A stretch of 44,620 nt of DNA from an uncultured delta proteobacterium (GCA_903860995.1 CAIOSS010000784.1:1-44620), one strand, 5' to 3'; shown: positions 1,222 through 44,620, counted from the first letter of the stretch. The notes: generated by a model not told the origin, from the letters alone. Numbers and translations: made by a program.

Positions 1222-1231
1222 CGGTCGCGGG

Positions 1232-7369: not shown

Positions 7370-7375
7370 GTCGCG

Positions 7376-10653: not shown

Positions 10654-10710
10654 CGGGGGTGCGCTAGGGGTCTCTATGCCCGAGATCCCACGCACCGCAT
10701 ACCGCGGCGT

Positions 10711-11327: not shown

Positions 11328-11333
11328 TCTGAG

Positions 11334-11402
11334 CGTTGAAACGTCTGAACGTCTCAGCGCCTTATCGTCTGGACGACGAAGCGTCCGAGGGTCTAGACGT
11401 CT
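11334..11402. promoter_or_regulatory. Iteron cluster 2, upstream of parA (candidate partition site/operator)
   Basis: cgttgaaacgtct at 11334-11346 is identical to 5290-5302. It is followed by gaacgtct (11347-11354), atcgtctggacga (about 11364-11376) and the AGACGTCT palindrome at 11395-11402. The cluster ends 6 nt before the proposed parA GTG. Confidence 0.65.
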
Positions 11403-11407
11403 CGGCC

Positions 11408-12100
11408 GTGATCGTTGCACTGACCGGACAGAAGGGCGGCGTCGGCAAGAGCACCCTGGCGATCTGCATCGCCGCGGAGCTGCTCGCCCGGCGCCACAAG
11501 GTGCTGCTCGTCGACGCCGATCCGCAGGGGACGATCCGCACCTGGGGCGAGGTCGCGGTCGACGCGGGGCAGCCCCTCCCGAGCATCGTCGCCATGGGCT
11601 CGACGATGCACCGGGCCGACCAGCTCCCGACGGTGCGCCTGGGCTACGACGACGTGATCATCGACTGTCCGCCGCGGCACGGGGAGATCCAGCGCTCGGC
11701 GCTCATGGTGGCCGACATGGCGATCCTGCCGTGCGGCCCCTCGTCGGCGGACGCCTGGGCGCTCGGGGCGAGCATCGACCTGGTCAACGAGGCGCGGACG
11801 CTGCGCTCCGACCTCGAGGTGCGCATCCTGATCACCCGCAAGCAGGGCCGGACGGCGCTGGGGCGGAGCGCCCGCGAGGAGCTCGAGAAGAGCGGCATCG
11901 AGCTGCTCAAGACCGAGGTCGGCTACCGGGTCGCGTTCGCCGAGGCGCTCGGCGCGGGGCAGGGGGTGACCGCGTACGCCCCCAAAGACGCTGCGGCAGA
12001 TGAGACCCGCGCGCTGGTCAGTGAGCTGCTGCTCTGGGAGAAGAATCATGGCACGCAAGAAGCCCCCGCTCAGCCTGCGAAGGCCGGGCGACGTCGTTGA
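11408..12100 (+). CDS. parA: ParA-family partition ATPase (deviant Walker A)
   Basis: Track ORF 11336-12100 starts at a TTG inside the iterons. The in-frame GTG at 11408 gives VIVALTGQKGGVGKST, with the Walker A motif at the usual distance from the N-terminus. Further ParA-like segments are LLVDADPQG and DDVIIDCPP. The start is uncertain. Confidence 0.85.
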   Translation: MIVALTGQKGGVGKSTLAICIAAELLARRHKVLLVDADPQGTIRTWGEVAVDAGQPLPSIVAMGSTMHRADQLPTVRLGYDDVIIDCPPRHGEIQRSALMVADMAILPCGPSSADAWALGASIDLVNEARTLRSDLEVRILITRKQGRTALGRSAREELEKSGIELLKTEVGYRVAFAEALGAGQGVTAYAPKDAAADETRALVSELLLWEKNHGTQEAPAQPAKAGRRR

Positions 12101-16982: not shown

Positions 16983-19900
16983 CTAGCCGAGCCCGCTCCA
17001 CTCCAGGTTGCGCTCCATGATGGTGCGCTGCGTGGCGGGGCCCGTGACCGTGTAGCCATCGTTGACGAAGGGCTTGTACCGGGGGAGGTTGAGCGCGGCG
17101 AGTTCGGCCATGCGCTCGGGGGTGGTGGGCGCCAGCCGGGCATCGAGGGCCTGGAGGAAGGGCCCCAGCACGCGGATGAGCTGCGAGACCATCTGCGGGA
17201 GGTTGTCGGCGAGCTGGTTGCGGGTCTGGTGGGTGACCCGGTCGCTGAGGTTCTGGAGCGCGGGGCTGCGCCACGTGAAGGTGTACCGGGGCGAGGTGAC
17301 GAAGCCCTGCTGCCCGGAGGAGACCGGGAGCACGGTGAAGTCGACGGGGACGTTCACCAGGGAGAACTGGTCGGCCTCGTTCACGCGCCCGAGGATGTGC
17401 GGGATGTTCACCTGGAAGCGGTTGCGGGGGATGACCTCCGGGGGCGCCTCCACGTTGGGGCCGTCGAAGGCGTTGGAGCCCGCGGCGGGGCCCTGACCCG
17501 GGAAGATGGTCTTCGCGGTCTGCAGGTAGAGCTCGGAGATCTCCGCCTTGCGGTCGTGCCCGAGGGCCGAATACAAGAACATCAACAGGTAGAGGTCGAT
17601 GTTTCCGGCCACGCAGCGGGACTGGCCCTTGGCGCGGGTGATGGTCTTGTAGAAGCGCTGGGTCGACGCCACGATCTGCTGCTTCTTCTCCTCCCATCGC
17701 AGCCCGTCGCTCTCCCACTTGCCGCCCGGGATCTCGTTGAAGGCCTGGTCTTCCAGGAACTTCGTCGCGTCGGTGAGGCGGTCGATGCCGAACTTCTCGG
17801 GGTTCTTCCCCCAGGGGGAGGTGGCGATCAGGTAGTACGAAGAGACCGAGTAGAAGTCCGTGGTGTGCGCCGTGCGCTCCAGGAACTCCATGATGCGGTC
17901 CTGCTTGGTGCGGGTCTCGTGGGGCATCCCGGCGATGAGCAGCACGTGGTTCCAGATGCCGAGCTCGTGGCTGGCCTTGAGGAGCCGCTCGATGGTCTCG
18001 GTGTTGATCCCCTTGTTGATCATGCGGAGCATGGAGTCCTCCGGGGACTCCACCCCGAAGACCAGCCGCATCGCGCCGGAGCGCCGCATCTTCTCCAGCA
18101 GGTGCTCGTCGAGCGAGCGCATGTTGCAGCAGTCCGACCAGAGGATGTCGAGGCGCTGGTCGACGAGCGCGTCGCAGAACATCTCGGCGTACTTGTAGAC
18201 CGAGTTGATCTGCGTATTGAGGAAGTGGAAGTGCTTGCAGTTGTAGGTCTCGGACAGGAACCGTAGCCCCGCCACGGTCTGCGCGAGGTCTTCGCCTTCG
18301 ATCTTCGTATAGGCGTAGGAGCAGAACCCGCACGGGGCGTTGCAGCCGCGGATGAAGATGTGCGGCAGCACCACGATCTGGTCGTTCTCGAAGCGAGAGA
18401 ACTTCAGCATCGTCTCCTTGTCGAAGTGGAACCGCTTCATGATCTGGCGGCCGGAGTACCGGAAGCGGTCGACCAGCTTCGGGTCGAACACCGGCACCGC
18501 CGCCGGGATCGTGTCGTACGCGTGCGCCCCGGCCTCCGCCGCGCTCAGGTCGGTGCGCTCGAAATCCAGGGCCTTCGAGCCGGTCGGCGCGGGCACGTGC
18601 TGCACGCCGTCGATCACGGTGCGCTGGCGCATGAGCTGCCGCGCGGCGATGACCACCGGGGCCTCCGCCTCGGCGAGCCCGCCGGCCGCGGCCATCGCGT
18701 TGGCGCCGATGTTGGTGTGCTCGGGCACGCCCTTGCGCAGCCCCGACAGCGTCAGGAGGTCGCGGTCCATGGCCGTGTCCGGGGCCGCGCGCCCGAAACA
18801 GATGGAGCCGTCCCCGGAGCGGTAGATCACCCGCGGGCCGAGCGTGCGGTTGCGCGCGTGCTCGCCGCTCCAGCTGTTGCGGAACAGCTGGACGGTGATC
18901 GCCTCGGCCTGCCCGACGAAGGCGTAGTCGATGGCCGGACACTCCTCCATGATCCGCTGGTAGATCGCGGGCTGGGTGCTGTCCGGCGAGGCCTGGAGCC
19001 CGCCGATGATGATGGTGCACTTCGGGTATCGCTCGCGGAGCGCCTTGGCGAGGCACTGCCCCACGGCGGCCAGGGCCATGACGTTCACGATGCGGTCGAG
19101 CACGGCGGAGAGGGAGATGCCGAACACGGCCTTCTCGGTGACGCCGAGCACCACGAGCAGCTTCTCGGTCTGCGGGCGCAGCGTGTCGTCGGTGCCCGCG
19201 AGGAAGCCCGCGACCAGCGCATGGTCGAAGTACTGCCGGAGGTCGAAGGCGTTCGCGTCTTCGGAGCACGCCTCGCAGACCTGCGCGTCGAAGTCCCAGT
19301 GCTCGAGGTCGCGGTGCCCGAGGCGGAAGAGGTGCCCCATCAGCGTGGGCACCCCGAGCTTCACCATCTCGTAGTCGTGCTCCCAGTTCATCTCGAGCAC
19401 ACGAAACGTCGGACTGATGAAGCCGATATTCATGGAGTCACTCCCGGACGTGAGCAGCGAAGGGCGTCGATCGACCGCAGGCAGGTTCGCCCCGAGGAGC
19501 CGGCGGACGTGGCCGTCCATGGGCTCGCCGGGGTGCCGCGCCATGCCTCGGTGGAAGAAATCACGCAGGGCCGCGCCGCCGACGACGGGGCGCAGCTCCG
19601 ACTCGCCGTGCACGGCGACGTAGCGCCGGTCGAGCTTGGTGCACACCGACGACAGCGCGCAGCCCTCGCACACCGAGGCCGACCCGCGGCGGTGGTCGGA
19701 GGCGCGGCCGTCGATGAGCACCTCGCCGTCGCGGTTGATGGAGAGGATGTTCTCGTCCGTGAGGTCGGTCGCGAAGACGGCCTCCTCGCCCAGCAGGCAG
19801 AGCGGGAAGTGCGTCAGCGTCACCATCGCCCCGCGCGCCCGCGCAACGCGCACGGCCTCGCGCACGTACCCCATGAGCTCGGTGTAGCGGGCCACCAGGG

Positions 19901-20543
19901 CGGCGTCGGACCCCTCGGCGCCTTCGAAGCAGTGCTTGAAGCGCAGCGTGGGGATGCCCTCGTCGACGAGCATCGCGGCGATGGCCGGAAGCCGCGGGGC
20001 GTTGCGCGCGGTCACCACGGTGGTCGCGCCCAGCACGGGCCGGTACTTCGCGGAGAGCTCGCGCAGGTGGCCCATCCCCCGGCGAAACGCCGCGAAGGCC
20101 CCGGGCCGGGCCATCATGGCGTCGTGCATCTCGGCGCCGTCGCCGTGGATGGAGAAGTCGATGTGGGAGAGGCCTGCGGCGAGGGCCGCCTCGGTCCACG
20201 CGCGGCTCTTGAACACGATGCCGTTGGTGTTGATGGTGATGGACTCGTACCCGAGCTCGCGGCCGCGTCGGCAGAACTCCGCGAAGCGCGGGTGCACCGT
20301 GGGCTCGCCGCCGGTGAACCCGAGGATCGTGCAGCCCTCCGCCCGGGATTCGACCATGCGCTCGAGGATCTTCTCGTCGGTCGGGTTGAGCTCGGGGCGA
20401 TTGAGGATGTCGAGCACGCAGCAGAAGGGGCACGCCGCGTTGCAGAAGGTAGTCAGGCTGATCAGCGCCACGCGCGAAGGCCGCGGCGGGGGCGCTGCGC
20501 CGAGCACCTTCAGGTGGGTTGTCCGTGAAGAGTCTGCCGACAT
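16983..20543 (-). CDS. Double radical-SAM fusion protein: SPASM/twitch-type radical SAM + B12-binding-like (class B) radical SAM + unknown 250-aa tail
   Basis: This is a 1186-aa ORF. Core 1 is C34-x3-C38-x2-C41 (FCNAACPFC) with GFTGGEPT and a downstream C292-x2-C295-x5-C301. From M371 (MNIGFISP...) a Rossmann-like segment runs (...TIIIGGLQASP). Core 2 is C734-x3-C738-x2-C741 (IRGCNAPCGFC) with FGVESPEDSMLRMINKG. I do not recognise aa 930-1186. Confidence 0.85.
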   Translation of the reverse strand: MSADSSRTTHLKVLGAAPPPRPSRVALISLTTFCNAACPFCCVLDILNRPELNPTDEKILERMVESRAEGCTILGFTGGEPTVHPRFAEFCRRGRELGYESITINTNGIVFKSRAWTEAALAAGLSHIDFSIHGDGAEMHDAMMARPGAFAAFRRGMGHLRELSAKYRPVLGATTVVTARNAPRLPAIAAMLVDEGIPTLRFKHCFEGAEGSDAALVARYTELMGYVREAVRVARARGAMVTLTHFPLCLLGEEAVFATDLTDENILSINRDGEVLIDGRASDHRRGSASVCEGCALSSVCTKLDRRYVAVHGESELRPVVGGAALRDFFHRGMARHPGEPMDGHVRRLLGANLPAVDRRPSLLTSGSDSMNIGFISPTFRVLEMNWEHDYEMVKLGVPTLMGHLFRLGHRDLEHWDFDAQVCEACSEDANAFDLRQYFDHALVAGFLAGTDDTLRPQTEKLLVVLGVTEKAVFGISLSAVLDRIVNVMALAAVGQCLAKALRERYPKCTIIIGGLQASPDSTQPAIYQRIMEECPAIDYAFVGQAEAITVQLFRNSWSGEHARNRTLGPRVIYRSGDGSICFGRAAPDTAMDRDLLTLSGLRKGVPEHTNIGANAMAAAGGLAEAEAPVVIAARQLMRQRTVIDGVQHVPAPTGSKALDFERTDLSAAEAGAHAYDTIPAAVPVFDPKLVDRFRYSGRQIMKRFHFDKETMLKFSRFENDQIVVLPHIFIRGCNAPCGFCSYAYTKIEGEDLAQTVAGLRFLSETYNCKHFHFLNTQINSVYKYAEMFCDALVDQRLDILWSDCCNMRSLDEHLLEKMRRSGAMRLVFGVESPEDSMLRMINKGINTETIERLLKASHELGIWNHVLLIAGMPHETRTKQDRIMEFLERTAHTTDFYSVSSYYLIATSPWGKNPEKFGIDRLTDATKFLEDQAFNEIPGGKWESDGLRWEEKKQQIVASTQRFYKTITRAKGQSRCVAGNIDLYLLMFLYSALGHDRKAEISELYLQTAKTIFPGQGPAAGSNAFDGPNVEAPPEVIPRNRFQVNIPHILGRVNEADQFSLVNVPVDFTVLPVSSGQQGFVTSPRYTFTWRSPALQNLSDRVTHQTRNQLADNLPQMVSQLIRVLGPFLQALDARLAPTTPERMAELAALNLPRYKPFVNDGYTVTGPATQRTIMERNLEWSGLG

Positions 20544-20701: not shown

Positions 20702-21775
20702 TTAGGCCAGCTCCACCACGCAGTCGTCGCCCACCATCAGGCTGAGGGCGCCGGCGCGGGTGCTGCCCGGCCGCACCCGCACCCGACGGCCGAGGAGCGA
20801 GTCCTCCAGGCGCGCGGTGTCCTCGACCACGCAGCCCTCCATCAGCACCGAGTGGTCGACGCCCGAGCGCAGCACCGTCACCCCGTCGCCGATGCTGGTG
20901 TAGGGGCCGATGCGCGCGTCGGTCAGCCGCGCCCCCGCGCCGATGATCACCGGGCCGCGGATGGTCGAGCGCTCCACCACGGCGCCGGCCTCGATGCGCA
21001 CCCGGCCGCTCACCCGGCTCGCGGCGTCGACGAGCCCGAGGCGCGCGGGCACCAGCCACGAGTCGAGCACGGTGGAGTTGGCCAGGAGGAGGTCGTCCTT
21101 CTTGCCGGTGTCCAGCCACCAGGAGCCGAGCACGTCGTGGTGGATGTGCTCGCCCCGCGCCAGGATGCGCGAGAGCGTGTCGGTGATCTCCAGCTCGCCG
21201 CGCGCCGACGGGGCGATCTCCGCGATGGCCGCGAACACCGACGGGCGGAACAGGTACACCCCCACCAGCGCGAGGTCGCTCGGCGGGTCGGCGGGCTTCT
21301 CGACCAGCCGGGTGATGGCCCCGTCGGCGTCGAGCACGGCCACCCCGAAGGCCCGCGGGTCGTCGACGGCCTTGAGCATCACCGAGGCGCTCCAGGCGGG
21401 CTCGGCCCGGAAGGCGTCCACCGCCGGGCGGATGGAGTCGCCGATGAGGTTGTCGCCCAGGTACATGCAGAAGTCGTCGTCGCCCAGGAAGGGCCGCGCC
21501 GTGAGCGCCGCGTGCGCCAGCCCGGCGGGGCGCTCCTGGACGATGTACGTGAGCCGGGCGCCCCAGCGGGCGCCGTCGCCCAGGGCCGCGCGCACCTCCG
21601 CGCCCGTCTCCGGCGAGATGATCACGCCGATGTCGGTGATGCCCGCGTCGACCAGCTTGTCGACGACGAAGAACAGGATCGGCCGGTTGGCCACGGGCAC
21701 CAGCTGCTTGGCGCCGGTGTACGTGATCGGCCGCAGCCGCGAGCCCGCGCCGCCCGCCAGGACGAGGCCCTTCAC
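20702..21775 (-). CDS. rmlA: Glucose-1-phosphate thymidylyltransferase, long form with C-terminal left-handed beta-helix
   Basis: GTG 21775 overlaps the rmlB stop as GTGA. The N-terminus is VKGLVLAGGAGSRLRPITYTGAKQLVPVANRPIL. Hexapeptide-like repeats occupy the last 90 aa or so. Track ORF 20702-21826 is in the same frame. Confidence 0.85.
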   Translation of the reverse strand: MKGLVLAGGAGSRLRPITYTGAKQLVPVANRPILFFVVDKLVDAGITDIGVIISPETGAEVRAALGDGARWGARLTYIVQERPAGLAHAALTARPFLGDDDFCMYLGDNLIGDSIRPAVDAFRAEPAWSASVMLKAVDDPRAFGVAVLDADGAITRLVEKPADPPSDLALVGVYLFRPSVFAAIAEIAPSARGELEITDTLSRILARGEHIHHDVLGSWWLDTGKKDDLLLANSTVLDSWLVPARLGLVDAASRVSGRVRIEAGAVVERSTIRGPVIIGAGARLTDARIGPYTSIGDGVTVLRSGVDHSVLMEGCVVEDTARLEDSLLGRRVRVRPGSTRAGALSLMVGDDCVVELA

Positions 21776-22833
21776 GCGCCGCCCCCGAGGCCGAGGCGCG
21801 CGCGGTCGTGGGCGCGGGCGTCGCACCAGCCGCGGTGCGCGAGGTACCAGCCCACGGTGGCGCGGAGGCCCGCGTCGAGCGAGTGCGCGGGCGACCAGCC
21901 GAGGGCGTCGCGGGCGCGCGCGGCGTCCACGGCGTAGCGGCGGTCGTGGCCGGGGCGGTCGCCGACGAAGCGGATGAGGGCGCGGTAGCCGCCGGGCGGG
22001 GCGCGGAGGCCCGCCGCGGGCGCGAGCTCGTCGAGCAGCGCGCAGAGCGACTCGACCAGGGCGAGGTTGGTGCGCTCGGCGCCGCCGCCCAGGGTGTAGG
22101 TGACCCCGGGGGCGCCGCGCAGGGCTGCGGCCAGGAGGGCGTCGCAGTGGTCGTCGACGTAGAGCCAGTCGCGCACGTGCTGCCCGTCGCCGTACACGGG
22201 CAGCGCGCGGTGCTCGACGGCGTTGAGGATCATCAGCGGGATGAGCTTCTCGGGGAACTGGTACGGCCCGTAGTTGTTCGAGCAGTGGGTGGTCACCACC
22301 GGGAGGCCGTAGGTGTTGGCCCAGGCCCGCGCGAGGTGGTCGCCGCCGGCCTTGGAGGCCGCGTAGGGCGAGTTGGGCGCGTGGGCCGAGCCCTCGTGGA
22401 AGCGCCCGCCGGCGCCGAGGGAGCCGAAGACCTCGTCGGTGGACACCTGCACGAAGCGGAACCCGGGCGGGGCGGCGCCGGACCCGACGTAGCGCCGGGC
22501 GGCCTCGAGCATCGCGTGCGTGCCGAGCACGTTGGTGCGAAGGAAGTCCGTCGCGTCGTCGATGGAGCGGTCGACGTGGGACTCCGCCGCGAGGTGGAGC
22601 ACGGCGTCGGGGCGGTGCTCTCGCAGCAGGGCCTCGACCAGGGCGCGGTCGCAGACGTCGCCGCGCACGAAGCGGTGCCGCGGGTGCCCGGCCACGTCGC
22701 GGAGGTTGTCGAGGCTGCCGGCGTAGGTGAGCAGGTCGAGGGTGACCACGGAGCAGGCGTCGTCGCGCAGGGCGCGGCGCACGAGGTTGGCGCCGATGAA
22801 GCCCGCGCCGCCGGTGACGAGCAGGGCGGTCAC
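21772..22833 (-). CDS. rmlB: dTDP-glucose 4,6-dehydratase
   Basis: This is the 3' 1062 nt of track ORF 21772-23373. GTG 22833 overlaps the upstream stop as GTGA. Motifs are LVTGGAGFIGANLV, HLAAESHVDRS, STDEVFG, YAASKAGGDHL and HCSNNYGPYQFPEKLIP. Confidence 0.9.
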   Translation of the reverse strand: MTALLVTGGAGFIGANLVRRALRDDACSVVTLDLLTYAGSLDNLRDVAGHPRHRFVRGDVCDRALVEALLREHRPDAVLHLAAESHVDRSIDDATDFLRTNVLGTHAMLEAARRYVGSGAAPPGFRFVQVSTDEVFGSLGAGGRFHEGSAHAPNSPYAASKAGGDHLARAWANTYGLPVVTTHCSNNYGPYQFPEKLIPLMILNAVEHRALPVYGDGQHVRDWLYVDDHCDALLAAALRGAPGVTYTLGGGAERTNLALVESLCALLDELAPAAGLRAPPGGYRALIRFVGDRPGHDRRYAVDAARARDALGWSPAHSLDAGLRATVGWYLAHRGWCDARAHDRARLGLGGGA

Positions 22834-25430
22834 GCGGGCACCACCCCGAAGGCCGCGAGCGCGCCGAGGCCCGGCGCCCGCCGCGCGAGCCGCGCCACCC
22901 GCTCGGGGCCGCGCAGCACCTCGAGGGCGCCGTCGGTCAGGCGCAGCCCGTCGCCGAGGGAGAGCACCGCCCCGAGGGCCCGCTCGAAGCCGTCGCGCAC
23001 GGCGCGGTCGTCCGTGGGCGACACGCCACCGACGACGCCGCCGTAGCGCAGCACGTCGGCGTCCTGGCGCGCCTCGGTGAGCACCACGAGGCGGGCGTGG
23101 TCGAAGAACAGCACCGGCCGCGCGAGGGCCTCCCGCAGCGCCGCCGCCGCGGCGGGCTGGGCGCGCGCCAGCAGGTCGAGCACGGCCTCGGCCTGGGCCA
23201 CCGCCCGCGGGCACCCGTACGAGCACGGGAACGACGGCAGCACGTACGCGAAGAGGTTGTTGAGCACCGGCGCGAAGGGCAGGCCCAGCCGCCGGGTGCG
23301 CGCGAGCGCGGCGTAGCGGATGGCCGTGTTGTTGGAGCGGTCGGGGAGGGCGGCGAAGGCCTCCACGCAGCACGGCGGGTACCCGAGCATGGCGCCCATC
23401 TCGGCGAGGTGCTCGCTCGGGCCGCGCGGGTCTTCGTAGATGGCGCGGGCGCGAGCCACGAGGGCGGGGTCACGGGAGAGGAAGAGGTCGACGTGGGTGC
23501 CCTCGCCGGGCGCCGCGGGGGCGCGGCCGCGCACGTCGGTGACGGCGTCATACGTGAACAGGTAATCGACCCGCGCGGCGTGGTGGTCGGCGAAGCGCGC
23601 GGCGAAGGCCTCGGCCTCGGCGCGGGGGAGGGTGAGGTAGAGCGCGGGCTTCAGGCCGTGCTCGTAGGCGAGCACCTCGAGGCGCGGGACGTCCACCCGC
23701 AGCGGGTCGGCGGGGAGCGGGGGAGGGTCCGCGGGGAGCCCGTCGGGGGCCTCGAGGCCGAGGGCGCGGAGGGCCTCGGCGGGGGTGCGGGCGTCGCGGG
23801 CCGCGGCGCTGACGCGCTGCCAGCCGGCGCGGTCGTCGGCCGGGGGCGGGCCGATGACGACGGCGGGCGAGGGGCGGGCGGGAGGGCGCGCGGGCGAGGG
23901 GGAGGGCGCGCCGTCGGCCCCGGGGGAGGTGTGGCGGATCTGCTGGAAGCGCGAGCCGAGCGAGCGGACGACGTCGCGGGCGAGGTCGGGGACGGGGTCG
24001 CCCCAGCGGTCGGGGCGGCGCTCGAGGAAGCGCACGATCTCGCGCAGCATGCGCACCTCGTCGTGGCGGCCCACCACGCGGAACATCGCGTCGTGGACGC
24101 CGTACGCCCGGTCGGTGGCGAGGTGCTGGAAGCGCCACGGGACCTCGGCCTCGTAGCCGTAGCGCCGGGCCGAGTCCATGGCCTCGTAGGGGAAGCGCTC
24201 GGCCAGCAGGCCCTCGTGCTTGGCTTTGTAGAAGAGCGCGGTGTCGGGGTAGAGCCGGAGCTTGGCGCGGGTGACCTGGCCGCGGAACTCCTGGAGCCCG
24301 ACGCGCTCGGCGGCGTCGAGGTTGAGGACGATGTCCGAGAGCTCGGTCCAGGGGTTGTAGAGGATGAACCCGAAGGCCGCGGGGGTGTCCGAGTAGCTCT
24401 TGGGGTAGCGCCGGCGGAGGCGCCGGCACTCGAGCACGGTGCGCTCGTTCTGCTCGACGGTGACGCCCTTGTTGTAGAGGTCGAGGTCCTTCTGCGAGAG
24501 GCTCTCCAGGCCCACCAGGAAGAGCAGCACCCGGTGGCCGTGGCGCTCGGCGCCCTGCCGCGCGCGCTCCATCACCGGCATCGAGCCGAGGAACCAGTCC
24601 GCCCGCGTCTCGATCAGCACCTCCATCGGGTGCGCGGCGCGCTCGCCGAGCCGGTCGATGAACTGCACCAGGTAGGGGAAGGGGTTCTGGTCGTTGAGCT
24701 GGATGCGCGCGGTCTCGGGCGCGTGATCGAGCAGGTGGTCGAGCTGCGCGAGCACCGACGCGAGCACCTCGCCGGACGGGCGCCGCGGGATGCCGCCGGA
24801 CGCGCAGAAGCTGCAGCCGCGGAGCACGACCTTCTCGTCGGGAAAGGGGACGTCGCGGAAGTGGGGGTTGTCCCGCACGCTCTGCCCGTAGGCGCACCCG
24901 GCGCTGCCGTGCACCACCGCGGGCCGGTCGGGCCGCTGGTCGCGGCCGACGCCGATGCGCACCAGGTTGTCCCGGGCGTGCGCCCGGGTGAGCTCCATCT
25001 GCGGCAGCCGGAACATCGCCTCGGTGACGGGCTCGCCGGCGGCGACGGCGCGGGCGATGGCCGCGAAGGTGTCGACCTGGTTCAGCGGGAAGGCGTGGGT
25101 GGTGCCCGGGAAGGCCACGCGCGGGTCGCCGAGGTAGATCCAGGTGACGTCCGGGAGCTGCGTCCGGAGGCGCTGGAAGACGGCCTCGCTCCACAGGCGC
25201 ACGTACGCGCAGACCCGGTAGCGACCCTGGAGCTGCGCGACGAGGGCGTCGATGGCGGAGAGGTCGTCGGCGTCGGGAGCGTCCGAGGCGGGGAGCGTCG
25301 CCTCGAAGAGCTCGTTGTGGACGCCCTGCGAGGTCAGCGCCGCGGAGAGCGAGGGGATGAGGTCGTCGTGGATGAAGTTCCGGCTCTGCGCAACCTGGAA
25401 CAGCAGGATCGCCGCGGCGGGTTCGACCAT
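22830..25430 (-). CDS. B12-binding-like / radical-SAM-like N-terminal half (non-canonical Cys spacing) fused via Pro-rich linker to a PPCC...PCx3C domain
   Basis: This is an 866-aa ORF. The N-terminal half has C179-x26-C206-x2-C209 (GCAY...LRGCSFCAS) and a TIM-barrel-like VGLESLSQKDLDLYNKG. The linker spans aa 500-580 and is rich in P and A. The C-terminal half has MLGYPPCCVEAF (C687, C688) and SFPCSYGC (C736, C740). It is homologous to ORF 31610-32338. Confidence 0.8.
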   Translation of the reverse strand: MVEPAAAILLFQVAQSRNFIHDDLIPSLSAALTSQGVHNELFEATLPASDAPDADDLSAIDALVAQLQGRYRVCAYVRLWSEAVFQRLRTQLPDVTWIYLGDPRVAFPGTTHAFPLNQVDTFAAIARAVAAGEPVTEAMFRLPQMELTRAHARDNLVRIGVGRDQRPDRPAVVHGSAGCAYGQSVRDNPHFRDVPFPDEKVVLRGCSFCASGGIPRRPSGEVLASVLAQLDHLLDHAPETARIQLNDQNPFPYLVQFIDRLGERAAHPMEVLIETRADWFLGSMPVMERARQGAERHGHRVLLFLVGLESLSQKDLDLYNKGVTVEQNERTVLECRRLRRRYPKSYSDTPAAFGFILYNPWTELSDIVLNLDAAERVGLQEFRGQVTRAKLRLYPDTALFYKAKHEGLLAERFPYEAMDSARRYGYEAEVPWRFQHLATDRAYGVHDAMFRVVGRHDEVRMLREIVRFLERRPDRWGDPVPDLARDVVRSLGSRFQQIRHTSPGADGAPSPSPARPPARPSPAVVIGPPPADDRAGWQRVSAAARDARTPAEALRALGLEAPDGLPADPPPLPADPLRVDVPRLEVLAYEHGLKPALYLTLPRAEAEAFAARFADHHAARVDYLFTYDAVTDVRGRAPAAPGEGTHVDLFLSRDPALVARARAIYEDPRGPSEHLAEMGAMLGYPPCCVEAFAALPDRSNNTAIRYAALARTRRLGLPFAPVLNNLFAYVLPSFPCSYGCPRAVAQAEAVLDLLARAQPAAAAALREALARPVLFFDHARLVVLTEARQDADVLRYGGVVGGVSPTDDRAVRDGFERALGAVLSLGDGLRLTDGALEVLRGPERVARLARRAPGLGALAAFGVVPA

Positions 25431-26789: not shown

Positions 26790-28469
26790 TCAGTCCGGCG
26801 ACCAGCGGTACACCTCGATGGGGGCGCACCGGCCCCGCGGGGGGATGTCGAACGGCTGGCTGTACCGACCGGCCTGCGACGCCGCGCAGAGCACCGACCT
26901 CCGTACGAGCCGCCATGGGTGCGCGCGCAGGGCCGTAGCGCAGTCCTCGGCGAGGAGTTCCCGGGGCGGGGGCCGTCGGGGTGCACCCGGCTGGCACGAC
27001 GACGGCTCGCGGAAGCACCCGGGGTCGAGGGAGCACACCCGGTCGATCACGAGCCAGTGGGCTCCGCGGTCGGAGTCGCGGAGCTGGCCGACGTCCACGG
27101 TCCACACGTCCGGGCGGAGCGAGCGGACCCAGGTCGCCGGGAAGCGCCGAAGCTCCCGCCCAGGCAGGGTCACGAAGCGATCGCCGGGCGCCATGCGGGC
27201 GACGGTCTCTCGCAGCAGGCGGTACTCCGCCGCGATGGGGAGCGGCGGCGCGTGCTCGAAGCGCGCGACGCCCGCGGCGACCACGCACAGCGCCGGCGTC
27301 GCGAGCCAGGCGGCGGCGAGGGCGCGGGGTCGTGAGGGAACCAGGACCGCCAGCGCGTCGGCGAGCCCGGCGACGGGCAGGAGGGCCAGCACCATGGAGA
27401 ACTGCCCGTGCCGCAGCCCCCCCGGAAACCACCCGTGCGACAGGCTCCCCTGCAGCACGCCCACGAGCGGCGCGAGCACGACGAGGAGGGTCGCCTGGAG
27501 GTCGCGGCGGAGGGCGCACCGCAGCGCCAGGAAGATCCATGCGGCGCACATCGCGGCACCCATCCAGGTCGGGATGTAGGGGGTGGCCCAACCCAGCCAG
27601 AGGTCGTCGCGGCCGACGTACCAAGCGTGCAGCGATGGACTGCGCACGATGAACGGCAGGTGCGGCATCGAGAGGAGCCCGGACGACTCCCGGTGCGACC
27701 GCATCGCGCCGAGGATGGAGACGAGCTGCGGCAGGAGCGCGGCCCCGAGGGCGGCGCAGGCCACGGCGAGGGTCCACCAGGGCAGCCGCGGAGAGCGCCG
27801 CGCACCCAGCATCGCCAGCGGCGCCAGCGCGGCCAGCGGGAGGGTCACGTCGCGGGCGAGCGCGGCGGCGGCGACGAGGGCGCACCCCGCGGCAAGCGAC
27901 CTGCGCGACCCCTCGGACGCGCCTACATGAAGCAGCGCCATGCCCGCGCACGCCGTCGCGACGGTGAGATTGAGCGGCTCCTCGGTGGGCGCCAGGAAGA
28001 GCGCGAGCGGCTGGAACATCAGCAGCGAGGCCGCGGCGAGGCCCGCGCGCCGGCTGCCGAACGCCCGCGTCGCGAGCCAGAACAGCCCCGGGACGCCCAG
28101 CGCGGAGAGGGTCACGCCCAGCGTGAAGGTCGGGTCGCCGTCGGGCCCGAACGCCCTGTTCAGCAGTGCCACGAGCAGCCGGTGCGCGGAGGGGACGTCG
28201 TGGTAGAGGGCTGCCTCGGAGAGCGGCATCCCCGCCGTCGCGACGTAGTCGTAGCCGTGGTGGTTCTCGTGGATCAGCGTGTGCGGCGCGGCGACCCAGC
28301 GCACCGCGAAGGCGAGTGCGAAGAGGGCGGCGGAGACCCCGAGGGCCTCCCGGCGGGCCGCCGGGGGCATGCGCCGCAGCCGGTCGTACACCGCGGCGCA
28401 CGTCGTGAGCGCGGCCGTGAGCAGGACGATCTGCAGGCTGAGCAGGGCGTACGCCGGCGGTTGGTACAT
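26790..28469 (-). CDS. Polytopic membrane protein, HENHH family paralogue 2
   Basis: This is a 559-aa ORF from ATG 28469. HTLIHENHHGYDYVATAG is encoded at about 28251-28283, and 24 nt there are identical to paralogue 1. The C-terminal soluble part has conserved Cys residues (DRVCSLDPGCF...EDCATALRAHPWRLV...RCAPIEVYRWSPD). Confidence 0.85.
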   Translation of the reverse strand: MYQPPAYALLSLQIVLLTAALTTCAAVYDRLRRMPPAARREALGVSAALFALAFAVRWVAAPHTLIHENHHGYDYVATAGMPLSEAALYHDVPSAHRLLVALLNRAFGPDGDPTFTLGVTLSALGVPGLFWLATRAFGSRRAGLAAASLLMFQPLALFLAPTEEPLNLTVATACAGMALLHVGASEGSRRSLAAGCALVAAAALARDVTLPLAALAPLAMLGARRSPRLPWWTLAVACAALGAALLPQLVSILGAMRSHRESSGLLSMPHLPFIVRSPSLHAWYVGRDDLWLGWATPYIPTWMGAAMCAAWIFLALRCALRRDLQATLLVVLAPLVGVLQGSLSHGWFPGGLRHGQFSMVLALLPVAGLADALAVLVPSRPRALAAAWLATPALCVVAAGVARFEHAPPLPIAAEYRLLRETVARMAPGDRFVTLPGRELRRFPATWVRSLRPDVWTVDVGQLRDSDRGAHWLVIDRVCSLDPGCFREPSSCQPGAPRRPPPRELLAEDCATALRAHPWRLVRRSVLCAASQAGRYSQPFDIPPRGRCAPIEVYRWSPD

Positions 28470-30657: not shown

Positions 30658-31263
30658 ATGGCAGCGGGCGACGACGACACGAAGGTCCCCGGCCGACCCG
30701 AAGGCCCCCCGAGGATGCTCGCGACGGGCGTCGCGATCCTCGCGCTTGGCGCGGCGCTGGTGGTGACCCGGGGCCGTCGGCACCCCACCCGCCCACCGCG
30801 CACGCCGCACGCAGCGAGCGGCGCCCAGCCCATCGGAGCGCCCGACCCTCCTGCGGGCGGCGCTCCCTCCGCGCCCCCTATCCCCCCCGTGGGTGGCGCG
30901 CCGACGCGGGCGCCGCCCGCTCCCCCGGCGGGCGCCGCCGAGCTCGCGCTGGTGGCCCCGCTCGTGGCCGGCGCCGCCCTGGGCGACGGGGAGATCACAG
31001 CGATCACCGGGGTGCAGCGGGGCTTCATGCACGTCCTCGTACGCAGGGGCGCGCAGACCTTCGACCTCGGCATCGGCCTCGCTCGCGATGGAATCGCAGG
31101 CCTGCGCGCGGGCCGCTACGCCGTGTACATCCTGGGCTCGACCCGGCCCGACCCGGCCGCGTTTCCCATCGCCGACGCACTCGCGCGGCGCATGGTCGTC
31201 AACGCGGGCGTGGCCCCTCCGCCGGGGATGTCCGCGGGCGACTTCCCCGCGTCGACGCGGTAG
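30658..31263 (+). CDS. Membrane-anchored protein with Pro-rich linker and small C-terminal domain
   Basis: GGGAGG at 30645-30650 lies 7 nt before ATG 30658. The TM segment is MLATGVAILALGAALVV. A Pro/Ala-rich stretch follows, then about 100 aa of ordered-looking sequence. I recognised no family. Confidence 0.55.
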   Translation: MAAGDDDTKVPGRPEGPPRMLATGVAILALGAALVVTRGRRHPTRPPRTPHAASGAQPIGAPDPPAGGAPSAPPIPPVGGAPTRAPPAPPAGAAELALVAPLVAGAALGDGEITAITGVQRGFMHVLVRRGAQTFDLGIGLARDGIAGLRAGRYAVYILGSTRPDPAAFPIADALARRMVVNAGVAPPPGMSAGDFPASTR

Positions 31264-31609: not shown

Positions 31610-32338
31610 TCAGCCCCCGAAATCCACGCACCAGGGTGGCGCCGCGGCGTCCGCCCCGCCCGCGGTGATCGCCCCAGCCGCGTCGACCCGGAGCCCCGCG
31701 AGGCGGGCCGCCAGGGCCGCGTCCCGGGGGTCACTCGCGCCATCGCGTCGCCGCGGGGCAGCCGCCCGCGCGATGAGTGCGCGGTCGTCATCGAGGGACA
31801 GCAGCGCCAGCAGGGACTGCGCGGTCGTCGGCTGGCGGGCCGCCAGCGCCGCGCGGAGCGCCTCGGCGACGCCCACCGCGACGGGGCAGTCGTACCGGCA
31901 CGGGTAGAACGAGATGAGCTGGGCGCGCGCGGCCATCAACAGCGGGTTGATGCGCGCGTCGGCCCGCGGCGCCCATGCGCCCCGGTCGAGGCGATCGACG
32001 CCGCGATCGAGGCGCTCGAGGAAGGCCTCCACGCAGCACGGCGGAAAGCCCAGGAGACTCCCGATGGCCCGGTGGCGCGCCGCGGCATCACCCGCGCTCG
32101 CGCGCCCCGGCAGCACGGCCTCCTCGGCGTCCCGCAGGGCGCCCGCGTGCCCGGCCGATCGCGCGGCGTAGAGCACCACCTGCTCGCGCCCGCCCAGCAC
32201 CGCGGTCTGCGCCGCGCGCAGCACCACGGCCCCGCCGGACCGGAGCTGCGCCTCCACCCGCGCGGCGTCCGCCGGGTCGACGGTTCGGCGAATCGCCGGC
32301 TTCTGTCCCAGCTCGAAGGCGAGCCACTCGGCGTCCAT
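31610..32338 (-). CDS. Stand-alone PPCC...PCx3C domain protein
   Basis: This is a 242-aa ORF. LLGFPPCCVEAFLERL and SFYPCRYDCPVAVGVAEAL align with MLGYPPCCVEAFAAL and SFPCSYGCPRAVAQAEAVL of 22830-25430. It is divergent from the radical SAM gene at 32470. Confidence 0.75.
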   Translation of the reverse strand: MDAEWLAFELGQKPAIRRTVDPADAARVEAQLRSGGAVVLRAAQTAVLGGREQVVLYAARSAGHAGALRDAEEAVLPGRASAGDAAARHRAIGSLLGFPPCCVEAFLERLDRGVDRLDRGAWAPRADARINPLLMAARAQLISFYPCRYDCPVAVGVAEALRAALAARQPTTAQSLLALLSLDDDRALIARAAAPRRRDGASDPRDAALAARLAGLRVDAAGAITAGGADAAAPPWCVDFGG

Positions 32339-32469: not shown

Positions 32470-34629
32470 ATGGACCCCGATCGCGCCCGCGGTCTCCCGG
32501 TGCGCCCCTTCTGCGTCACGGCCGCGTGTGATCTCCGCTGCGCATGGTGCGAGTGCTGCGGTGGCCCGACCGGCGTGGACTTCTCCCCGGGCAGCCCCGA
32601 GCAGCCCTCCTTCCCGACCGACCCCACGCACTTCCGTCTCGTGGGCGGCGATCCCTTCTCCCACGGCGACCTGCGCGCGTGGGTCGACTGGGCCCGACAC
32701 AACCCCGCGGCCTACGTCTCCGTCGAGGGCCACGCGCACCGCCTCCTGGAAGCGGGCGCCATCGACCGCCTGCTCGCCGCGCGCCCGGACGCCGTGCGCG
32801 TGCTGCTGCCGACGCTCGACGACGACCTGCTCGCCCGCTGGACGGCGAAGCCCCTCGTGGCCGCGCGCTCCCTCGCGGCGATGGAGGCGCTCCTGGCCGC
32901 CGGGCTCCCGGTCGTCGCCGTCGTCGCCCTCAACGCCGCCACCGCGCCGCACCTCCAGGACACCGTGTCGGGCCTCGCGCGGCGCTTCCAGGGGCGCGTC
33001 CCGGTGGTGCTGCTCCGAGCGCCCGTGCTGCCGCCACGCCCGGGGCGCCTGCACGACCTCGCGGTCGACGATCCCGCCGAGACGCTCACCATCGGCGAGG
33101 CCCTGGAGGCGCTGCCCGCGGCGCTCCCATTCGACGCCTCGCTCACCTTCGACGCGCTGAAGAACGACCCCCCGTGCCTGCTCCCCGCGAGCGCCCGTCG
33201 GCCGGGCCTGGTGACCGCCGCGAGGTCCGAGCGGGCGCTGGCGAGCACCCCCGCCCCGGAGGTGTGCGGCGGGTGCGCCTGGAGGCCCCGGTGCACCTGG
33301 CGACCGGCCGCGCGGGCGGTGCCGGTGCACGCCATGGTGCCGCTCTCGCAGGCCGAGGCCATGGCGATGCAGTCCGCCCTGGAGGCCGGCGCGGCGACCC
33401 CCGCCCGCGTCGACGAGCGCGCCCGGCGGCGCGAGGCGCAGGGGCTGCCCGACCTGCTCTGCTTTGCGCCGTTCACCTCCCTCTCGGTGCACGAGCTGCG
33501 CAAGCGGCCGGTGCCCTGCGCGCAGTCGTGGGTGGACACCACCTCGACGCCGGAAATGGAGGCCGAGGCGCTGGGGGTGCCCGTGGCGGAGGTCGTCGCC
33601 ATGAACGCCCGCGCCCAGGAACTCTGGGGCGTGCCCTGGCACGACGTCATGAACGAGGACTGGCCCCTGCGCGAGGTCTGGAACGCCCCGCTGCTGCGCC
33701 ACATGCGTCGGCAGATGGTGCGCGGCGGGCCGAGCGACCGGTGCCGCTCGAGCTGCCGCGTGGTGCTCGGGGTCGAGGAGCGGGGGACGCCCTTCCTGAC
33801 GCGCCCGGACGCCGAGCTCTCCGCGGCGGTGGTGGCCAACCGACGGCTCCTGCTCGACGAGCTGCGCGCGGGGAAGGCGGTGCTCACGGCGCTGCCGATC
33901 GACCTGTGCGTAGGCGTCTCGTCGCACTGCAACATCAGCTGCGGCTTCTGCACCGGCCCGATGGGAAACTTCGGAGAGCTGAGTGACCGGCGCTTCGCGG
34001 AGGTCGTGGAGCTCCTGCCGACGCTGATGCACTTCTCCGCCGTGGGCCCCGGAGAGCCGCTGATGAGCGCGGCCTTCAACCGCCTGCTCGACCACATCGC
34101 CGCCGGCGACTACCCCTCGCTCACGGTGAGCGTCACCACCAACGGGACCCTGCTGCGCCAGAGCTGGATCGACCGCTATCAACACCTGCGCTGGGGAATG
34201 ATCCGCGTCTCGCTCAACGCCGGGAGCGCCGCCACCTACGAGCGGATGACCGGGAAGACCGGCTACTTCGAGCGGGTCCTTGCAGGCCTGGAGATGCTCG
34301 CCGCGATGCGCGACCGCCAGCGCGACCCCTTCGAGCTGGTCGTGAGCTGCGTGCTCGGCGCCAACGTGCAGGGCGACCTCGCGCCCTTCGCCGCGTTGGT
34401 CGACCGCCTGGGCGCGCGCATCGTGCTCGAACCCATGACCGGCGACCTGGACGGCACCAGCCCCTACAAAGACCCGGGGCGCACCCGCGCGCTCGCGGCC
34501 GAGTGCCATACGGTCGCAGACGCCTATGCGATCCAGAACCCCCCGGTGGCGCGCGCGTTCAACGCCATGGCAACGTTCGCCGAGGAGCGGCTGCGCAAGC
34601 GGCTCCAGGTGATCCTGCCGCGCCGGTGA
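32470..34629 (+). CDS. Double radical-SAM protein: radical SAM (CX3CX2C) + CX2CX5C/SPASM-like Cys cluster + second radical SAM core
   Basis: ATG 32470 lies within track ORF 31975-34629 and gives 719 aa. Core 1 is C20-x3-C24-x2-C27 (TAACDLRCAWC) with LVGGDPF. Next come C266-x2-C269-x5-C275 and a SPASM-like LCFAPFTSLSV...PVPC...EVWNAPLLRHMRR...CRSSC. Core 2 is C487-x3-C491-x2-C494 (SSHCNISCGFC) with GPGEPLM and TTNGTLL. Confidence 0.85.
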   Translation: MDPDRARGLPVRPFCVTAACDLRCAWCECCGGPTGVDFSPGSPEQPSFPTDPTHFRLVGGDPFSHGDLRAWVDWARHNPAAYVSVEGHAHRLLEAGAIDRLLAARPDAVRVLLPTLDDDLLARWTAKPLVAARSLAAMEALLAAGLPVVAVVALNAATAPHLQDTVSGLARRFQGRVPVVLLRAPVLPPRPGRLHDLAVDDPAETLTIGEALEALPAALPFDASLTFDALKNDPPCLLPASARRPGLVTAARSERALASTPAPEVCGGCAWRPRCTWRPAARAVPVHAMVPLSQAEAMAMQSALEAGAATPARVDERARRREAQGLPDLLCFAPFTSLSVHELRKRPVPCAQSWVDTTSTPEMEAEALGVPVAEVVAMNARAQELWGVPWHDVMNEDWPLREVWNAPLLRHMRRQMVRGGPSDRCRSSCRVVLGVEERGTPFLTRPDAELSAAVVANRRLLLDELRAGKAVLTALPIDLCVGVSSHCNISCGFCTGPMGNFGELSDRRFAEVVELLPTLMHFSAVGPGEPLMSAAFNRLLDHIAAGDYPSLTVSVTTNGTLLRQSWIDRYQHLRWGMIRVSLNAGSAATYERMTGKTGYFERVLAGLEMLAAMRDRQRDPFELVVSCVLGANVQGDLAPFAALVDRLGARIVLEPMTGDLDGTSPYKDPGRTRALAAECHTVADAYAIQNPPVARAFNAMATFAEERLRKRLQVILPRR

Positions 34630-42347: not shown

Positions 42348-42378
42348 ACACCGTCATGGCGGCGAACAGACACGCGCT

Positions 42379-44400: not shown

Positions 44401-44620
44401 CGAATAGGGACCAGGAGATCGTCGACCCACCCGCTACGATAGGGTCACGAGCGAAGGCCGGTCAACGTGAGCCGCCGGCCCTGGGATTCGGAGTAGGCGT
44501 CTCCGGGCCGGATCGGGAGGACCGACGGGGGACGAGGCGTGACCGGACGCCGCCTGGCCGCCGGGACATCGGCGCCGCCGCGCTCTGCGCGTCGGGTGGG
44601 TTGAGTTTTCGGGAGCCCGC

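Follow-up and report, generated by a model that had tools for sequence, protein, structure and literature searches.

What is the product of a gene that appears to join a radical S-adenosylmethionine (SAM) enzyme lacking the canonical cysteine motif to a second domain with four conserved cysteines? The question is raised by a 44,620-nucleotide stretch of DNA from an uncultured delta proteobacterium (GCA_903860995.1, CAIOSS010000784.1:1-44620), analyzed here over its whole length and called the window, in which an open reading frame (ORF) encoding 866 amino acids (aa), the target, occupies positions 22830-25430 on the minus strand. A first-pass annotation had described a non-canonical radical-SAM-like enzyme fused to a domain that it could not confidently assign to any family. 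That domain can now be named as a remote relative of the Pfam family DUF483, and we show that DUF483-like domains are recurrently fused to radical SAM enzymes, or encoded next to them, in Myxococcota and independently in phages. We hypothesize, with our confidence evenly divided between belief and doubt, that the target is a two-module protein of a multi-radical-SAM cassette, in which a split-triad, class-B-like enzyme is joined to a metal-binding DUF483 partner that serves in docking or in substrate presentation.

The N-terminal module and its split cysteine triad

The whole protein and the predicted features of its N-terminal half are as follows.

22830-25430, minus strand: whole ORF, 866 aa, non-canonical radical SAM module plus DUF483-like module (ORF, homologues, alignment, AlphaFold model)
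24981-25430, minus strand: aa 1-150, Rossmann/flavodoxin-like N-terminal domain, placed as a cobalamin-binding domain would be (AlphaFold strand and helix order, Foldseek)
23931-24959, minus strand: aa 158-500, radical SAM core, a partial TIM barrel extended by helices at its C-terminal end (AlphaFold, Foldseek, weak hidden Markov model (HMM) matches)
24804-24899, minus strand: aa 178-209, split cluster motif G-C179-x26-G-C206-S-F-C209 (alignment invariance, motif scan of homologues)
24465-24515, minus strand: aa 306-322, class-B/methylthiotransferase-type "GxES...L...KG" radical SAM signature VGLESLSQKDLDLYNKG (alignment, OxsB profile alignment)

The protein has nine cysteines (residues 74, 179, 206, 209, 335, 687, 688, 736 and 740), and the seven that the first-pass annotation had singled out, C179, C206, C209, C687, C688, C736 and C740, lie exactly where it placed them, in the contexts GSAGC179-x26-RGC206SFC209, GYPPC687C688 and PC736SYGC740. 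That annotation had proposed an alignment of homologues as the test of these residues: C179 is invariant in a 24-sequence alignment of the N-terminal half that reaches down to 22% identity, and the four C-terminal cysteines are invariant in 205 relatives. Also invariant in the 24 sequences are, among others, G178, G205, C206, F208, C209, D247, R276, D278, G307 and E309, followed by L316, K321, G322, P360, W361, R392, L393 and Y394, which together place the motifs RGC..FC, DQNPF, GLES...NKG and GFILYNPWTE among the fixed features of the family.

The spacing of the triad is equally constant. Among 153 homologues that cover the motif region, gathered from databases and from 80 genomic loci, 148 carry G-C-x(24-31)-G-C-x-[FYWH]-C, mostly at spacings of 24-27, and none of the 153 has a cysteine at the canonical -4 position. 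A split arrangement of the kind first read from the target, with C179 as its upstream member, is the rule among these proteins. Because nearly all homologues have the split triad and no other cysteine is conserved in the N-terminal half, we take CX24-27CX2C as the feature that defines the family. The canonical CxxxCxxC is absent from the target and from its 32 full-length homologues, so that the CX3CX2C hallmark of the radical SAM superfamily is missing throughout this group. We infer from the conservation pattern that C179, C206 and C209 would ligate a [4Fe-4S] cluster despite the insertion of 24-27 residues, and that the module would be catalytically active and still cleave SAM reductively. 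Active radical SAM enzymes with an expanded motif exist, such as Burkholderia QueE with CX14CX2C. That spacing is mentioned in PMC4389238, and a CX24-27CX2C motif in a radical SAM context was not found in the literature searched; with about 26 residues inserted in a class-B-like scaffold, the target family would widen what the cluster-binding loop is known to accommodate.

What fold carries this triad? A full-length AlphaFold2 model built from a 76-sequence alignment, with a mean predicted local distance difference test (pLDDT) score of 92.5, has a Rossmann-like domain of four beta-alpha units at aa 5-100, in agreement with the Rossmann-like start noted earlier, and, after it, a core resembling an alpha/beta barrel. 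When the N-terminal half was compared with the PDB by Foldseek, OxsB ranked first (E 3e-12), ahead of MiaB (3e-8), MgmA (2e-7) and the lipoyl synthase LipA (9e-4), and the alignments to OxsB, MgmA and MiaB run across the whole half. The class B resemblance that the first-pass annotation had seen is thus borne out at the level of fold, and its own refuting outcome, a fold outside the radical SAM superfamily, did not arise. The TIM-barrel signature that it had pointed to, VGLESLSQKDLDLYNKG at aa 306-322, aligns to OxsB FIGVESGSNQQLKRYGKG in a profile search of PDB sequences, in which the target GCSFC also falls on OxsB RCTFC, and LVGLENFSQKELDLFNKGVTVEEN on FIGVESGSNQQLKRYGKGTTSEQN. Sequence and profile searches of the PDB sequences with the target gave nothing significant, the best being OxsB at E 0.2; a match to P5CS (E 0.0015, to the alpha/beta lead-in) was judged spurious.

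Profile libraries recognize the family faintly. NCBIfam gives weak, sub-threshold matches to ArsL and HpnJ at aa 298-411; some homologues attain PF04055 or come close to it, among them P0088 with 28.2 bits against the cut-off of 29.5, P0037 has a "faint" PF04055 match, and P0111 scores 21.8 bits for PF02310 against a cut-off of 32.1. The partial barrel and the SAM-binding motifs expected of the superfamily are present, with GxES, KG and PW-TE invariant, and the order of domains, with a Rossmann-like domain ahead of the radical SAM core, agrees with class B, as do the top fold matches; PF02310 itself is not detected in the target. These models and matches support the assignment of the N-terminal half to a class-B-like, methylthiotransferase-type radical SAM fold, and cobalamin may be used by it. 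The domain at aa 1-150 has no conserved cysteine, and therefore no MiaB-type auxiliary cluster; since MiaB and RimO are recognized by three N-terminal cysteines and a TRAM domain, for which the target has no match either, a MiaB-type identity was rejected. In other words, radical SAM annotation leans on CX3CX2C and PF04055, and the split-motif family escapes both while it keeps every other hallmark.

The four-cysteine domain and its partners in bacteria and phages

The second half of the protein, and a separate gene in the window that resembles it, comprise the following features.

23862-23927, minus strand: aa 502-523, disordered Pro/Ala/Ser-rich linker (the sole segment with pLDDT below 50)
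23679-23861, minus strand: aa 524-584, short helical lead-in to the C-terminal domain (pLDDT 71-98, helices at 534-546 and 550-555)
22833-23678, minus strand: aa 585-866, DUF483-superfamily four-cysteine domain, a remote member by sequence (Pfam, model, hhalign)
23355-23384, minus strand: aa 683-692, GYPPCCVEAF with C687 and C688 at a helix N-terminus (conservation in 205 sequences)
23211-23228, minus strand: aa 735-740, PCSYGC with C736 and C740 just ahead of a helix (conservation in 205 sequences)
31610-32338, minus strand: stand-alone DUF483-like paralogue, 242 aa (Pfam, BLASTP)

The two halves had been thought to be joined by a linker of about 80 aa rich in Pro and Ala. The composition stands, as aa 500-584 are 44% Pro plus Ala, and the picture of one extended linker does not: predicted disorder is confined to aa 502-523, where the DNA holds GGCG-type low-complexity tandem repeats, and aa 524-584 are confidently predicted as short helices that are kept as a lead-in when the modules are separate genes (P0060). 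The claim that the C-terminal domain occurs alone at 31610-32338 was sound. The two are true homologues (31% identity, E 3e-11 by BLASTP), and an orthologue of the stand-alone paralogue adjoins the fusion gene in L003, L010-L014 and L001.

The C-terminal domain is, as judged from its profile relationships, a remote and sub-threshold member of the DUF483 superfamily. Its homologues P0090, P0094, P0097, P0130, P0143 and P0153 cross the Pfam cut-off, with 25.8-30.0 bits, and an exhaustive profile search over 1.84 billion cluster representatives recovered 3,550 clusters (at 50% identity) at E<=1e-3 and 1,928 at E<=1e-10. Across the 205 aligned members G683, P685, C687, C688, C736 and C740 are 100% conserved and Y684 99%, and conserved Arg, Asn, Glu and Lys residues occur outside the cysteines. 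Modeled separately (pLDDT 93.9, predicted template modeling score (pTM) 0.90), the domain has an N-terminal alpha/beta subdomain, a helical core in which CC begins one helix and PCxxxC just precedes another, and a C-terminal beta-rich subdomain. Foldseek against the PDB gave no significant match (best 2GUK, a protein of unknown function, E 0.03; NleE, E 1.5), which indicates that this fold is not represented among solved structures, and a search of BFVD gave none either. The four cysteines most likely bind a metal, either Zn or an Fe-S center, a prediction that follows from their conservation.

Other identities for this domain were tried and set aside. SPASM and HxsD were rejected on the absence of profile matches: there is no PF13186 match in the target and no SPASM or Fer4 Pfam signal, its pattern CC-x47-C-x3-C differs from the CX9-15GX4C...CX2CX5CX3C type, and the domain has no match to the HxsD model TIGR03976. 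Profile scans turned up nothing resembling PqqD or a RiPP (ribosomally synthesized and post-translationally modified peptide) recognition element (RRE). The assignment to DUF483 also does not refute the first-pass proposal, which would have failed had the domain belonged to a well-characterized family with an unrelated role, as DUF483 is a family of unknown function, for which a literature search on PF04467 and IPR007556 found nothing relevant. A large, structurally unsolved and essentially unannotated family of about 3,550 clusters is now linked to radical SAM chemistry, which provides a concrete hypothesis for its function.

The link is recurrent in bacteria. Both copies in the window lie beside radical SAM modules, as had been noted at first, and elsewhere the association takes the form of fusions in both orders, split adjacent genes and operons. 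Of 167 DUF483-like family representatives, 25 are fused to the split-motif radical SAM module, 7 have a canonical-type CxxxCxxC motif (three of these also within the 25), 58 have a different N-terminal region in a protein of 450-660 aa, and 80 are short stand-alone proteins; a GFO/IDH/MocA-like Rossmann domain was found in three of the Pfam-scanned members of about 540-650 aa (P0097, P0138, P0174). The domain order is reversed in P0047, P0052 and P0216, and in L001 the modules are separate overlapping genes, P0060 then P0037, in a locus that also has four further radical SAM genes and another paralogue of DUF483-like type. An operon of L094 with two radical SAM genes ends in a gene for a GFO/IDH/MocA-DUF483 protein. 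In the co-occurrence analysis that the first-pass annotation had proposed, a DUF483-like gene lies within 10 kb in 44 of 80 genomic loci that carry the split-motif module, and 11 are fusions; stand-alone members without a radical SAM neighbor also exist.

Two further arrangements were observed during these surveys. At L091 (10001-14533) a single protein of 1510 aa, P0040, combines the split-motif module with two canonical radical SAM domains and a GFO/IDH/MocA domain, and its neighbors are a ferredoxin, a paralogue of DUF483-like type and a protein of 540 aa that contains DUF483. At L026 (18132-21023), in a metagenome-assembled genome (MAG) of Archangiaceae, the multi-radical-SAM cluster is bordered by a squalene-hopene cyclase-like gene.

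The same partnership exists in phages. A preprint on Thermus phages describes a module in which a radical SAM gene and a DUF483 gene are accompanied by a third gene without assigned function, and reports that InterPro lists DUF483 fused to methyltransferase or radical SAM domains (bioRxiv 10.1101/2024.08.14.607894). At L093 (3498-6978) a SPASM-type radical SAM gene is followed by a gene for a fusion of DUF483 with a class I methyltransferase, and hhalign aligns the myxobacterial family with this phage DUF483-methyltransferase family at 99.0% probability (E 3e-18, 190 columns), across the alpha/beta subdomain and both cysteine motifs. The two families thus share the core with GYPxCC and PCxxxC that marks the superfamily. 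Among 61 viral loci (L098-L158), the radical SAM gene ends at the start of the DUF483 gene in 33, a His-rich repeat protein with HxD, HxS or HxN periodicity is encoded within 4 kb upstream in 42, and both genes lie upstream in 32. In Thermus phage Cumys (L097, PQ109079.1, 1703-4933) the order is tail collar fiber, hypothetical protein, His-x-Asp repeat protein, radical SAM and DUF483. The phage radical SAM enzymes resemble the peptide maturases AmcB, DynA and anSME, and the DUF483 gene of the phages is often fused to a class I methyltransferase. The conserved triad beside tail-fiber genes suggests radical-SAM-dependent maturation of a phage structural protein and not the DNA modification proposed in the preprint.

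The phage sequences also bear on the cysteines themselves. In the Cumys protein the third motif cysteine, equivalent to C736, is a histidine (P-H-xxx-C); across the phage family CC...CxxxC occurs in 110 of 112 sequences and CC...HxxxC in the other 2. A position that alternates between Cys and His alone behaves as expected of a metal ligand.

The operon, the cassette and their distribution

The target sits in a tight minus-strand operon and has a GC content at third codon positions (GC3) of 0.95, as is usual for genes of this window of about 74% GC. Its TGA stop overlaps the GTG start of the next gene (GTGA, 22830-22833), which encodes a dTDP-glucose 4,6-dehydratase-like protein, and the gene upstream stops 5 nt ahead of its ATG. 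A database search found 55 relatives, of which 32 are full-length at 59-93% identity and 7 consist of the N-terminal half alone; the others are more distant (22-35% identity), and several of them join the N-terminal half to a radical SAM domain with canonical CxxxCxxC. The fusion is therefore real and under selection. The neighbors that matter for its interpretation are these.

20702-22833, minus strand: RmlA-like nucleotidyltransferase and dTDP-glucose 4,6-dehydratase-like genes, translationally coupled to the target (profile matches, overlap)
16983-20543, minus strand, the same as the target: double radical SAM protein, 1186 aa, with an N-terminal HxsC4-like radical SAM domain and a C-terminal B12-type domain (Pfam, NCBIfam)
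32470-34629, plus strand: double radical SAM protein, 719 aa, with CDLRCAWC and CNISCGFC (profile matches), divergent from the stand-alone paralogue

The HxsC4-like domain of the 1186-aa protein scores 96.5 bits against a cut-off of 500, its C-terminal domain is PhpK-like or resembles RiPP C-methyltransferases, and its orthologues in L003 and L010-L013 are 67-85% identical. The 719-aa protein has CDLRCAWC near its N-terminus and a MoaA/twitch-like domain at aa 475-660; its gene diverges from the stand-alone DUF483-like gene across a gap of about 130 bp and is kept with the fusion in L003 and L010-L012. A mechanical ORF list stretches this ORF to 31975, into the DUF483-like gene. A four-gene core is shared by the closest relatives (L003, L010-L013), composed of the fusion, the stand-alone paralogue and the double radical SAM proteins of 1186 and about 720 aa, the last of which was not seen in L013. 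The cassette in the window holds five radical SAM-type domains.

The surrounding operon includes the RmlA-like gene, the RmlB-like gene and a GT-C/PMT_2-like membrane protein, with two epimerase-like genes of the short-chain dehydrogenase/reductase (SDR) type divergent just past its start. These contents suggest that the local substrate is a nucleoside diphosphate (NDP)-sugar or an envelope glycan. As a conserved part of the cassette the sugar-nucleotide genes were ruled out, since L003 and L010-L012 lack the RmlA-like and dehydratase-like genes; L013 and L014 do have SDR genes. A 201-aa Pro-rich protein (30658-31263) was likewise rejected as a conserved substrate because it is present only in the closest relatives.

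Other genes of the window have less obvious connections. Two paralogous membrane proteins, at 26790-28469 and 8968-10710, both on the minus strand, share a TLIHENHHGY motif; one of them has a weak match to PMT_2 (GT-C glycosyltransferase) and is encoded upstream of the target, within its operon, and the His-rich segment of ORF 8968-10710 proved to be merely the HENHHGYHH motif of the second GT-C-like membrane protein. Four FG-GAP/ASPIC (UnbV) repeat proteins flank the cassette (1049-3013, 5360-7375, 40407-42353 and 42379-44433), and an FG-GAP/ASPIC-like protein also adjoins it in L003 and L010. Just upstream of the first of the FG-GAP genes, a 195-bp tandem repeat (307-957, 3.3 copies, 91% match) encodes a Cys/Gly-rich unit (CGGYCANTSSDPFNCGGCGVRCATGQVCTARVC...). 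A phage-integrase-family gene (4050-5279, plus strand) and a ParA/MinD-like ATPase gene (11333-12100, plus strand) upstream of the cassette possibly indicate a mobile or island context; a search of the window for tRNA genes found none. On the other side, at 34691-37575 on the plus strand, a DUF1592/DUF1588/DUF1585/DUF1595/DUF1587 protein is followed by a DUF1552 (HXXSHH) protein, a gene pair of planctomycete type. Neither the target nor its paralogue matches the defense profiles of PADLOC-DB 2.0, in which the neighboring radical SAM proteins have generic pVip similarity only, and the target has no match among the PHROGs profiles.

The multi-radical-SAM cassette hardly occurs outside Myxococcota. 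Of 185,579 species-representative genomes scanned, 91 species-level genomes held a target relative, nearly all of them Myxococcota, plus some MAGs of Binatia; the former include Polyangiales, Sandaracinaceae and the cultured Polyangium fumosum DSM 14668, P. jinanense and Minicystis rosea DSM 24000. The split-motif family comprises hundreds of metagenomic clusters besides. Split-motif homologues also occur on five MAG contigs labeled Klebsiella pneumoniae or Enterobacteriaceae (L060, L067, L068, L072, L079), with a GC content of 59-72%; these bins are probably mislabeled or contaminated. Cultured organisms in which our hypotheses could be tested are Minicystis rosea DSM 24000, Polyangium fumosum DSM 14668 and Thermus phage Cumys.

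A possible substrate comes from some of the distant relatives. In the classical HXS system, which acts in antiphage defense, HxsB and HxsC mature HxsA, and the small HxsD binds HxsC (PMC13128918). The canonical radical SAM domains that accompany the target family match NCBIfam HxsC4/HxsC best, at 96-158 bits against a cut-off of 500, and five loci with distant target relatives encode an (SHG)n-SW peptide:

L026, 936-1328: (SHG)n-SW peptide gene
L035, 1230-1793: (SHG)n-SW peptide gene
L038, 1118-1501: (SHG)n-SW peptide gene
L045, 4714-5019: (SHG)n-SW peptide gene
L070 (Minicystis rosea), 588-1151: (SHG)n-SW peptide gene

The peptide is a full member of NCBIfam HxsA4 (121.9 bits, cut-off 55), and HxsA4 thus lies within 10 kb in 5 of the 80 split-motif loci. 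L026 also has a true HxsC4 (555.8 bits against 500) and HxsB (532 against 370), and the peptide gene of L038 and L045 is flanked by the DUF483-like gene on one side and the split-motif gene on the other. In the window itself the NCBIfam cut-offs for HxsB, HxsC, HxsC4 and HxsD are not reached, as the target has no such match and the 1186-aa protein remains far below 500 bits. The general link to HxsA4 is kept as a lead and not as a finding: among 80 metagenomic HxsA4 loci, 17 of them at least 6 kb long, the contig stretch fetched around each match held no split-motif module, and a DUF483-like domain in one. An HxsA4 gene also occurs on the same 151-kb contig (L172) as P0002, an 85%-identical homologue, an association of contig only. 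The repeat pattern (HGS)n-W at the C-terminus was found in at least 120 stretches from high-GC metagenomes, and 73 of 80 fetched loci match the peptide HMM. The type-4 His-Xaa-Ser system is abundant in high-GC metagenomes and appears to be uncharacterized.

Interpretation, rivals and known systems

Hypothetically, the two-module protein would work as follows. Module 1 (aa 1-500), with its class-B/methylthiotransferase architecture, would provide the radical chemistry. Module 2 (aa 585-866) would hold a Zn or Fe-S center in its CC...PCxxxC cysteines and would dock on the radical SAM module or present substrate to it, acting together with the stand-alone paralogue at 31610-32338 and with the two double-radical-SAM proteins. 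By analogy, such a role would resemble that of HxsD or of RREs without common ancestry with either. The distant relatives and the phage systems suggest His-rich repeat peptides or proteins as substrates, and the product of the cassette is probably an unknown modified glycan, lipid or peptide.

Several observations weigh against this proposal. Neither window copy reaches the gathering threshold of DUF483 (PF04467), the target scoring 21.7 bits (aa 676-746) and the paralogue 21.1 against a cut-off of 25, and the window protein has no match to PF04055, whose gathering threshold is the usual profile test for the superfamily, or to PF02310. The pTM of the full-length model is 0.66, which leaves the packing of the two domains uncertain. 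The stand-alone DUF483-like genes of L005, L007, L090 and L096 have no annotated radical SAM neighbor, and for most of the more distant split-motif homologues, which are joined to a canonical radical SAM domain, no DUF483-like domain lies nearby. The domain is therefore not an obligate radical SAM partner, and the partnership is specific to subfamilies. Fusions to GFO/IDH/MocA domains and class I methyltransferases fit an independent enzymatic or ligand-binding role as well as they fit an adaptor. Regex and HMM scans over all window ORFs of at least 30 aa identified no substrate gene, and neither the window nor its close relatives yielded an HxsA-type peptide or His-rich protein.

These points give force to the main rival, in which the DUF483-like domain is an enzyme or ligand-binding module of its own, for a nucleotide, an NDP-sugar or a His-rich peptide, the fusions join consecutive steps of a pathway, and the Cys4 site is a structural zinc. 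Its fusion to three unrelated catalytic domains (radical SAM, GFO/IDH/MocA, class I methyltransferase), the many stand-alone members without a radical SAM neighbor, the conserved Arg, Asn, Glu and Lys, and the translational coupling of the target to a dTDP-glucose dehydratase-like gene all speak for it. However, the PDB and BFVD searches found no similarity to a known enzyme fold, the universally invariant residues are only G, P and the four cysteines, and the presence of two paralogous copies per cassette and the close linkage to radical SAM genes in phages point to a partner protein; on balance we consider an independent enzyme somewhat unlikely. Unlikely, too, and a shade more so, is that the Cys4 site is an auxiliary Fe-S cluster that replaces a SPASM/twitch or MiaB-type cluster and supplies module 1 with electrons, sulfur or substrate ligation. 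Four invariant cysteines at helix N-termini, the rare Cys-to-His swap typical of metal ligands, a MiaB/OxsB-like N module without cysteines in its own N-terminal domain, and the ferredoxin gene of the L091 cassette would all agree with such a cluster, but a cubane cluster is seldom ligated by vicinal CC, fusions of the domain to methyltransferases and GFO/IDH/MocA enzymes, which need no Fe-S, also occur, the Pfam scan gave no SPASM or Fer4 signal, and Zn fits the data equally well. If the site does hold an Fe-S cluster, the domain would be an auxiliary-cluster domain of a new class, available in cis or in trans.

The remaining rivals concern the N-terminal module and the gene itself. That the module is a catalytically dead, radical-SAM-like scaffold whose cysteines are structural might be argued from the absence of CX3CX2C and of a PF04055 match, and from DQNPF standing in place of the GGE-type motif, but we find it very unlikely: even homologues at 22% identity strictly retain the three cysteines, the aromatic residue before the last of them, and the ribose and beta-5 motifs, and long motif insertions are compatible with activity, as in QueE. 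We give almost no credence to an assembly or gene-calling artifact that joined two genes. Split versions do exist in other genomes (L001), but the same architecture recurs in 32 independent full-length homologues and in the complete Minicystis rosea genome (L070), and the frame is continuous with uniform GC3.

Returning to the two-module proposal, how far can it be generalized? It is conceivable, although we regard it as doubtful, that DUF483 as a whole is a Cys4 metallo-domain, of a fold unseen in the PDB, that serves as a dedicated partner of radical SAM maturases: with a SPASM enzyme acting on His-x-Asp repeat proteins in phages, within expanded type-4 His-Xaa-Ser cassettes in some Myxococcota, and fused to an undescribed CX24-27CX2C class-B-like family in the window. 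Neither half of the target is categorically new, as the first is a motif variant or lineage-specific family within the radical SAM superfamily and the second a divergent branch of an existing DUF. Their combination, of a split triad, a Cys4 family without a solved structure and a radical SAM partnership that extends to the phage triad, is unreported in the literature searched.

Among known enzymes, the closest in architecture are the class B proteins OxsB (PDB 5UL2) and MgmA (PDB 9CCB), in which a Rossmann-like N-terminal domain likewise precedes a partial radical SAM barrel; these enzymes also have RGC..FC, DxNF, GxES...L...KG and GfIxG-P-xE-type motifs in common with the target. In contrast to both, the target has its first cluster cysteine moved 24-27 residues upstream, with none at the canonical position, has no PF02310 or PF04055 match, and carries the extra DUF483-like domain. 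The methylthiotransferases MiaB and RimO (PDB 7MJY) have the same overall two-domain fold (MiaB, E 3e-8, TM score to the target 0.47), whereas the target has neither the conserved cysteines of their N-terminal domain nor, in the Pfam scan, their TRAM domain. QueE, with CX14CX2C, parallels the target in a long insertion between the first cysteine and the CxxC pair, with activity retained, but belongs to an unrelated radical SAM subfamily, has a shorter insertion and is without a Rossmann domain.

For the partnership, the nearest counterpart is the phage radical SAM module of Thermus phages Cumys and phiMa, with its Pfam DUF483 protein. The window copies share its GYPxCC...PCxxxC core, with Pfam matches at profile positions 36-100, and in both settings the DUF483 gene adjoins or fuses with radical SAM genes. 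The window copies differ in having another C-terminal beta subdomain in place of the methyltransferase, and the partner in the window is a split-motif class-B-like enzyme, not a SPASM maturase, with no His-rich repeat protein nearby. The HXS system offers a parallel of a different kind: the target is neither HxsB nor HxsC, yet HxsD, a small and non-catalytic partner of HxsC, plays a part that parallels the one proposed here for the DUF483-like domain (PMC13128918).

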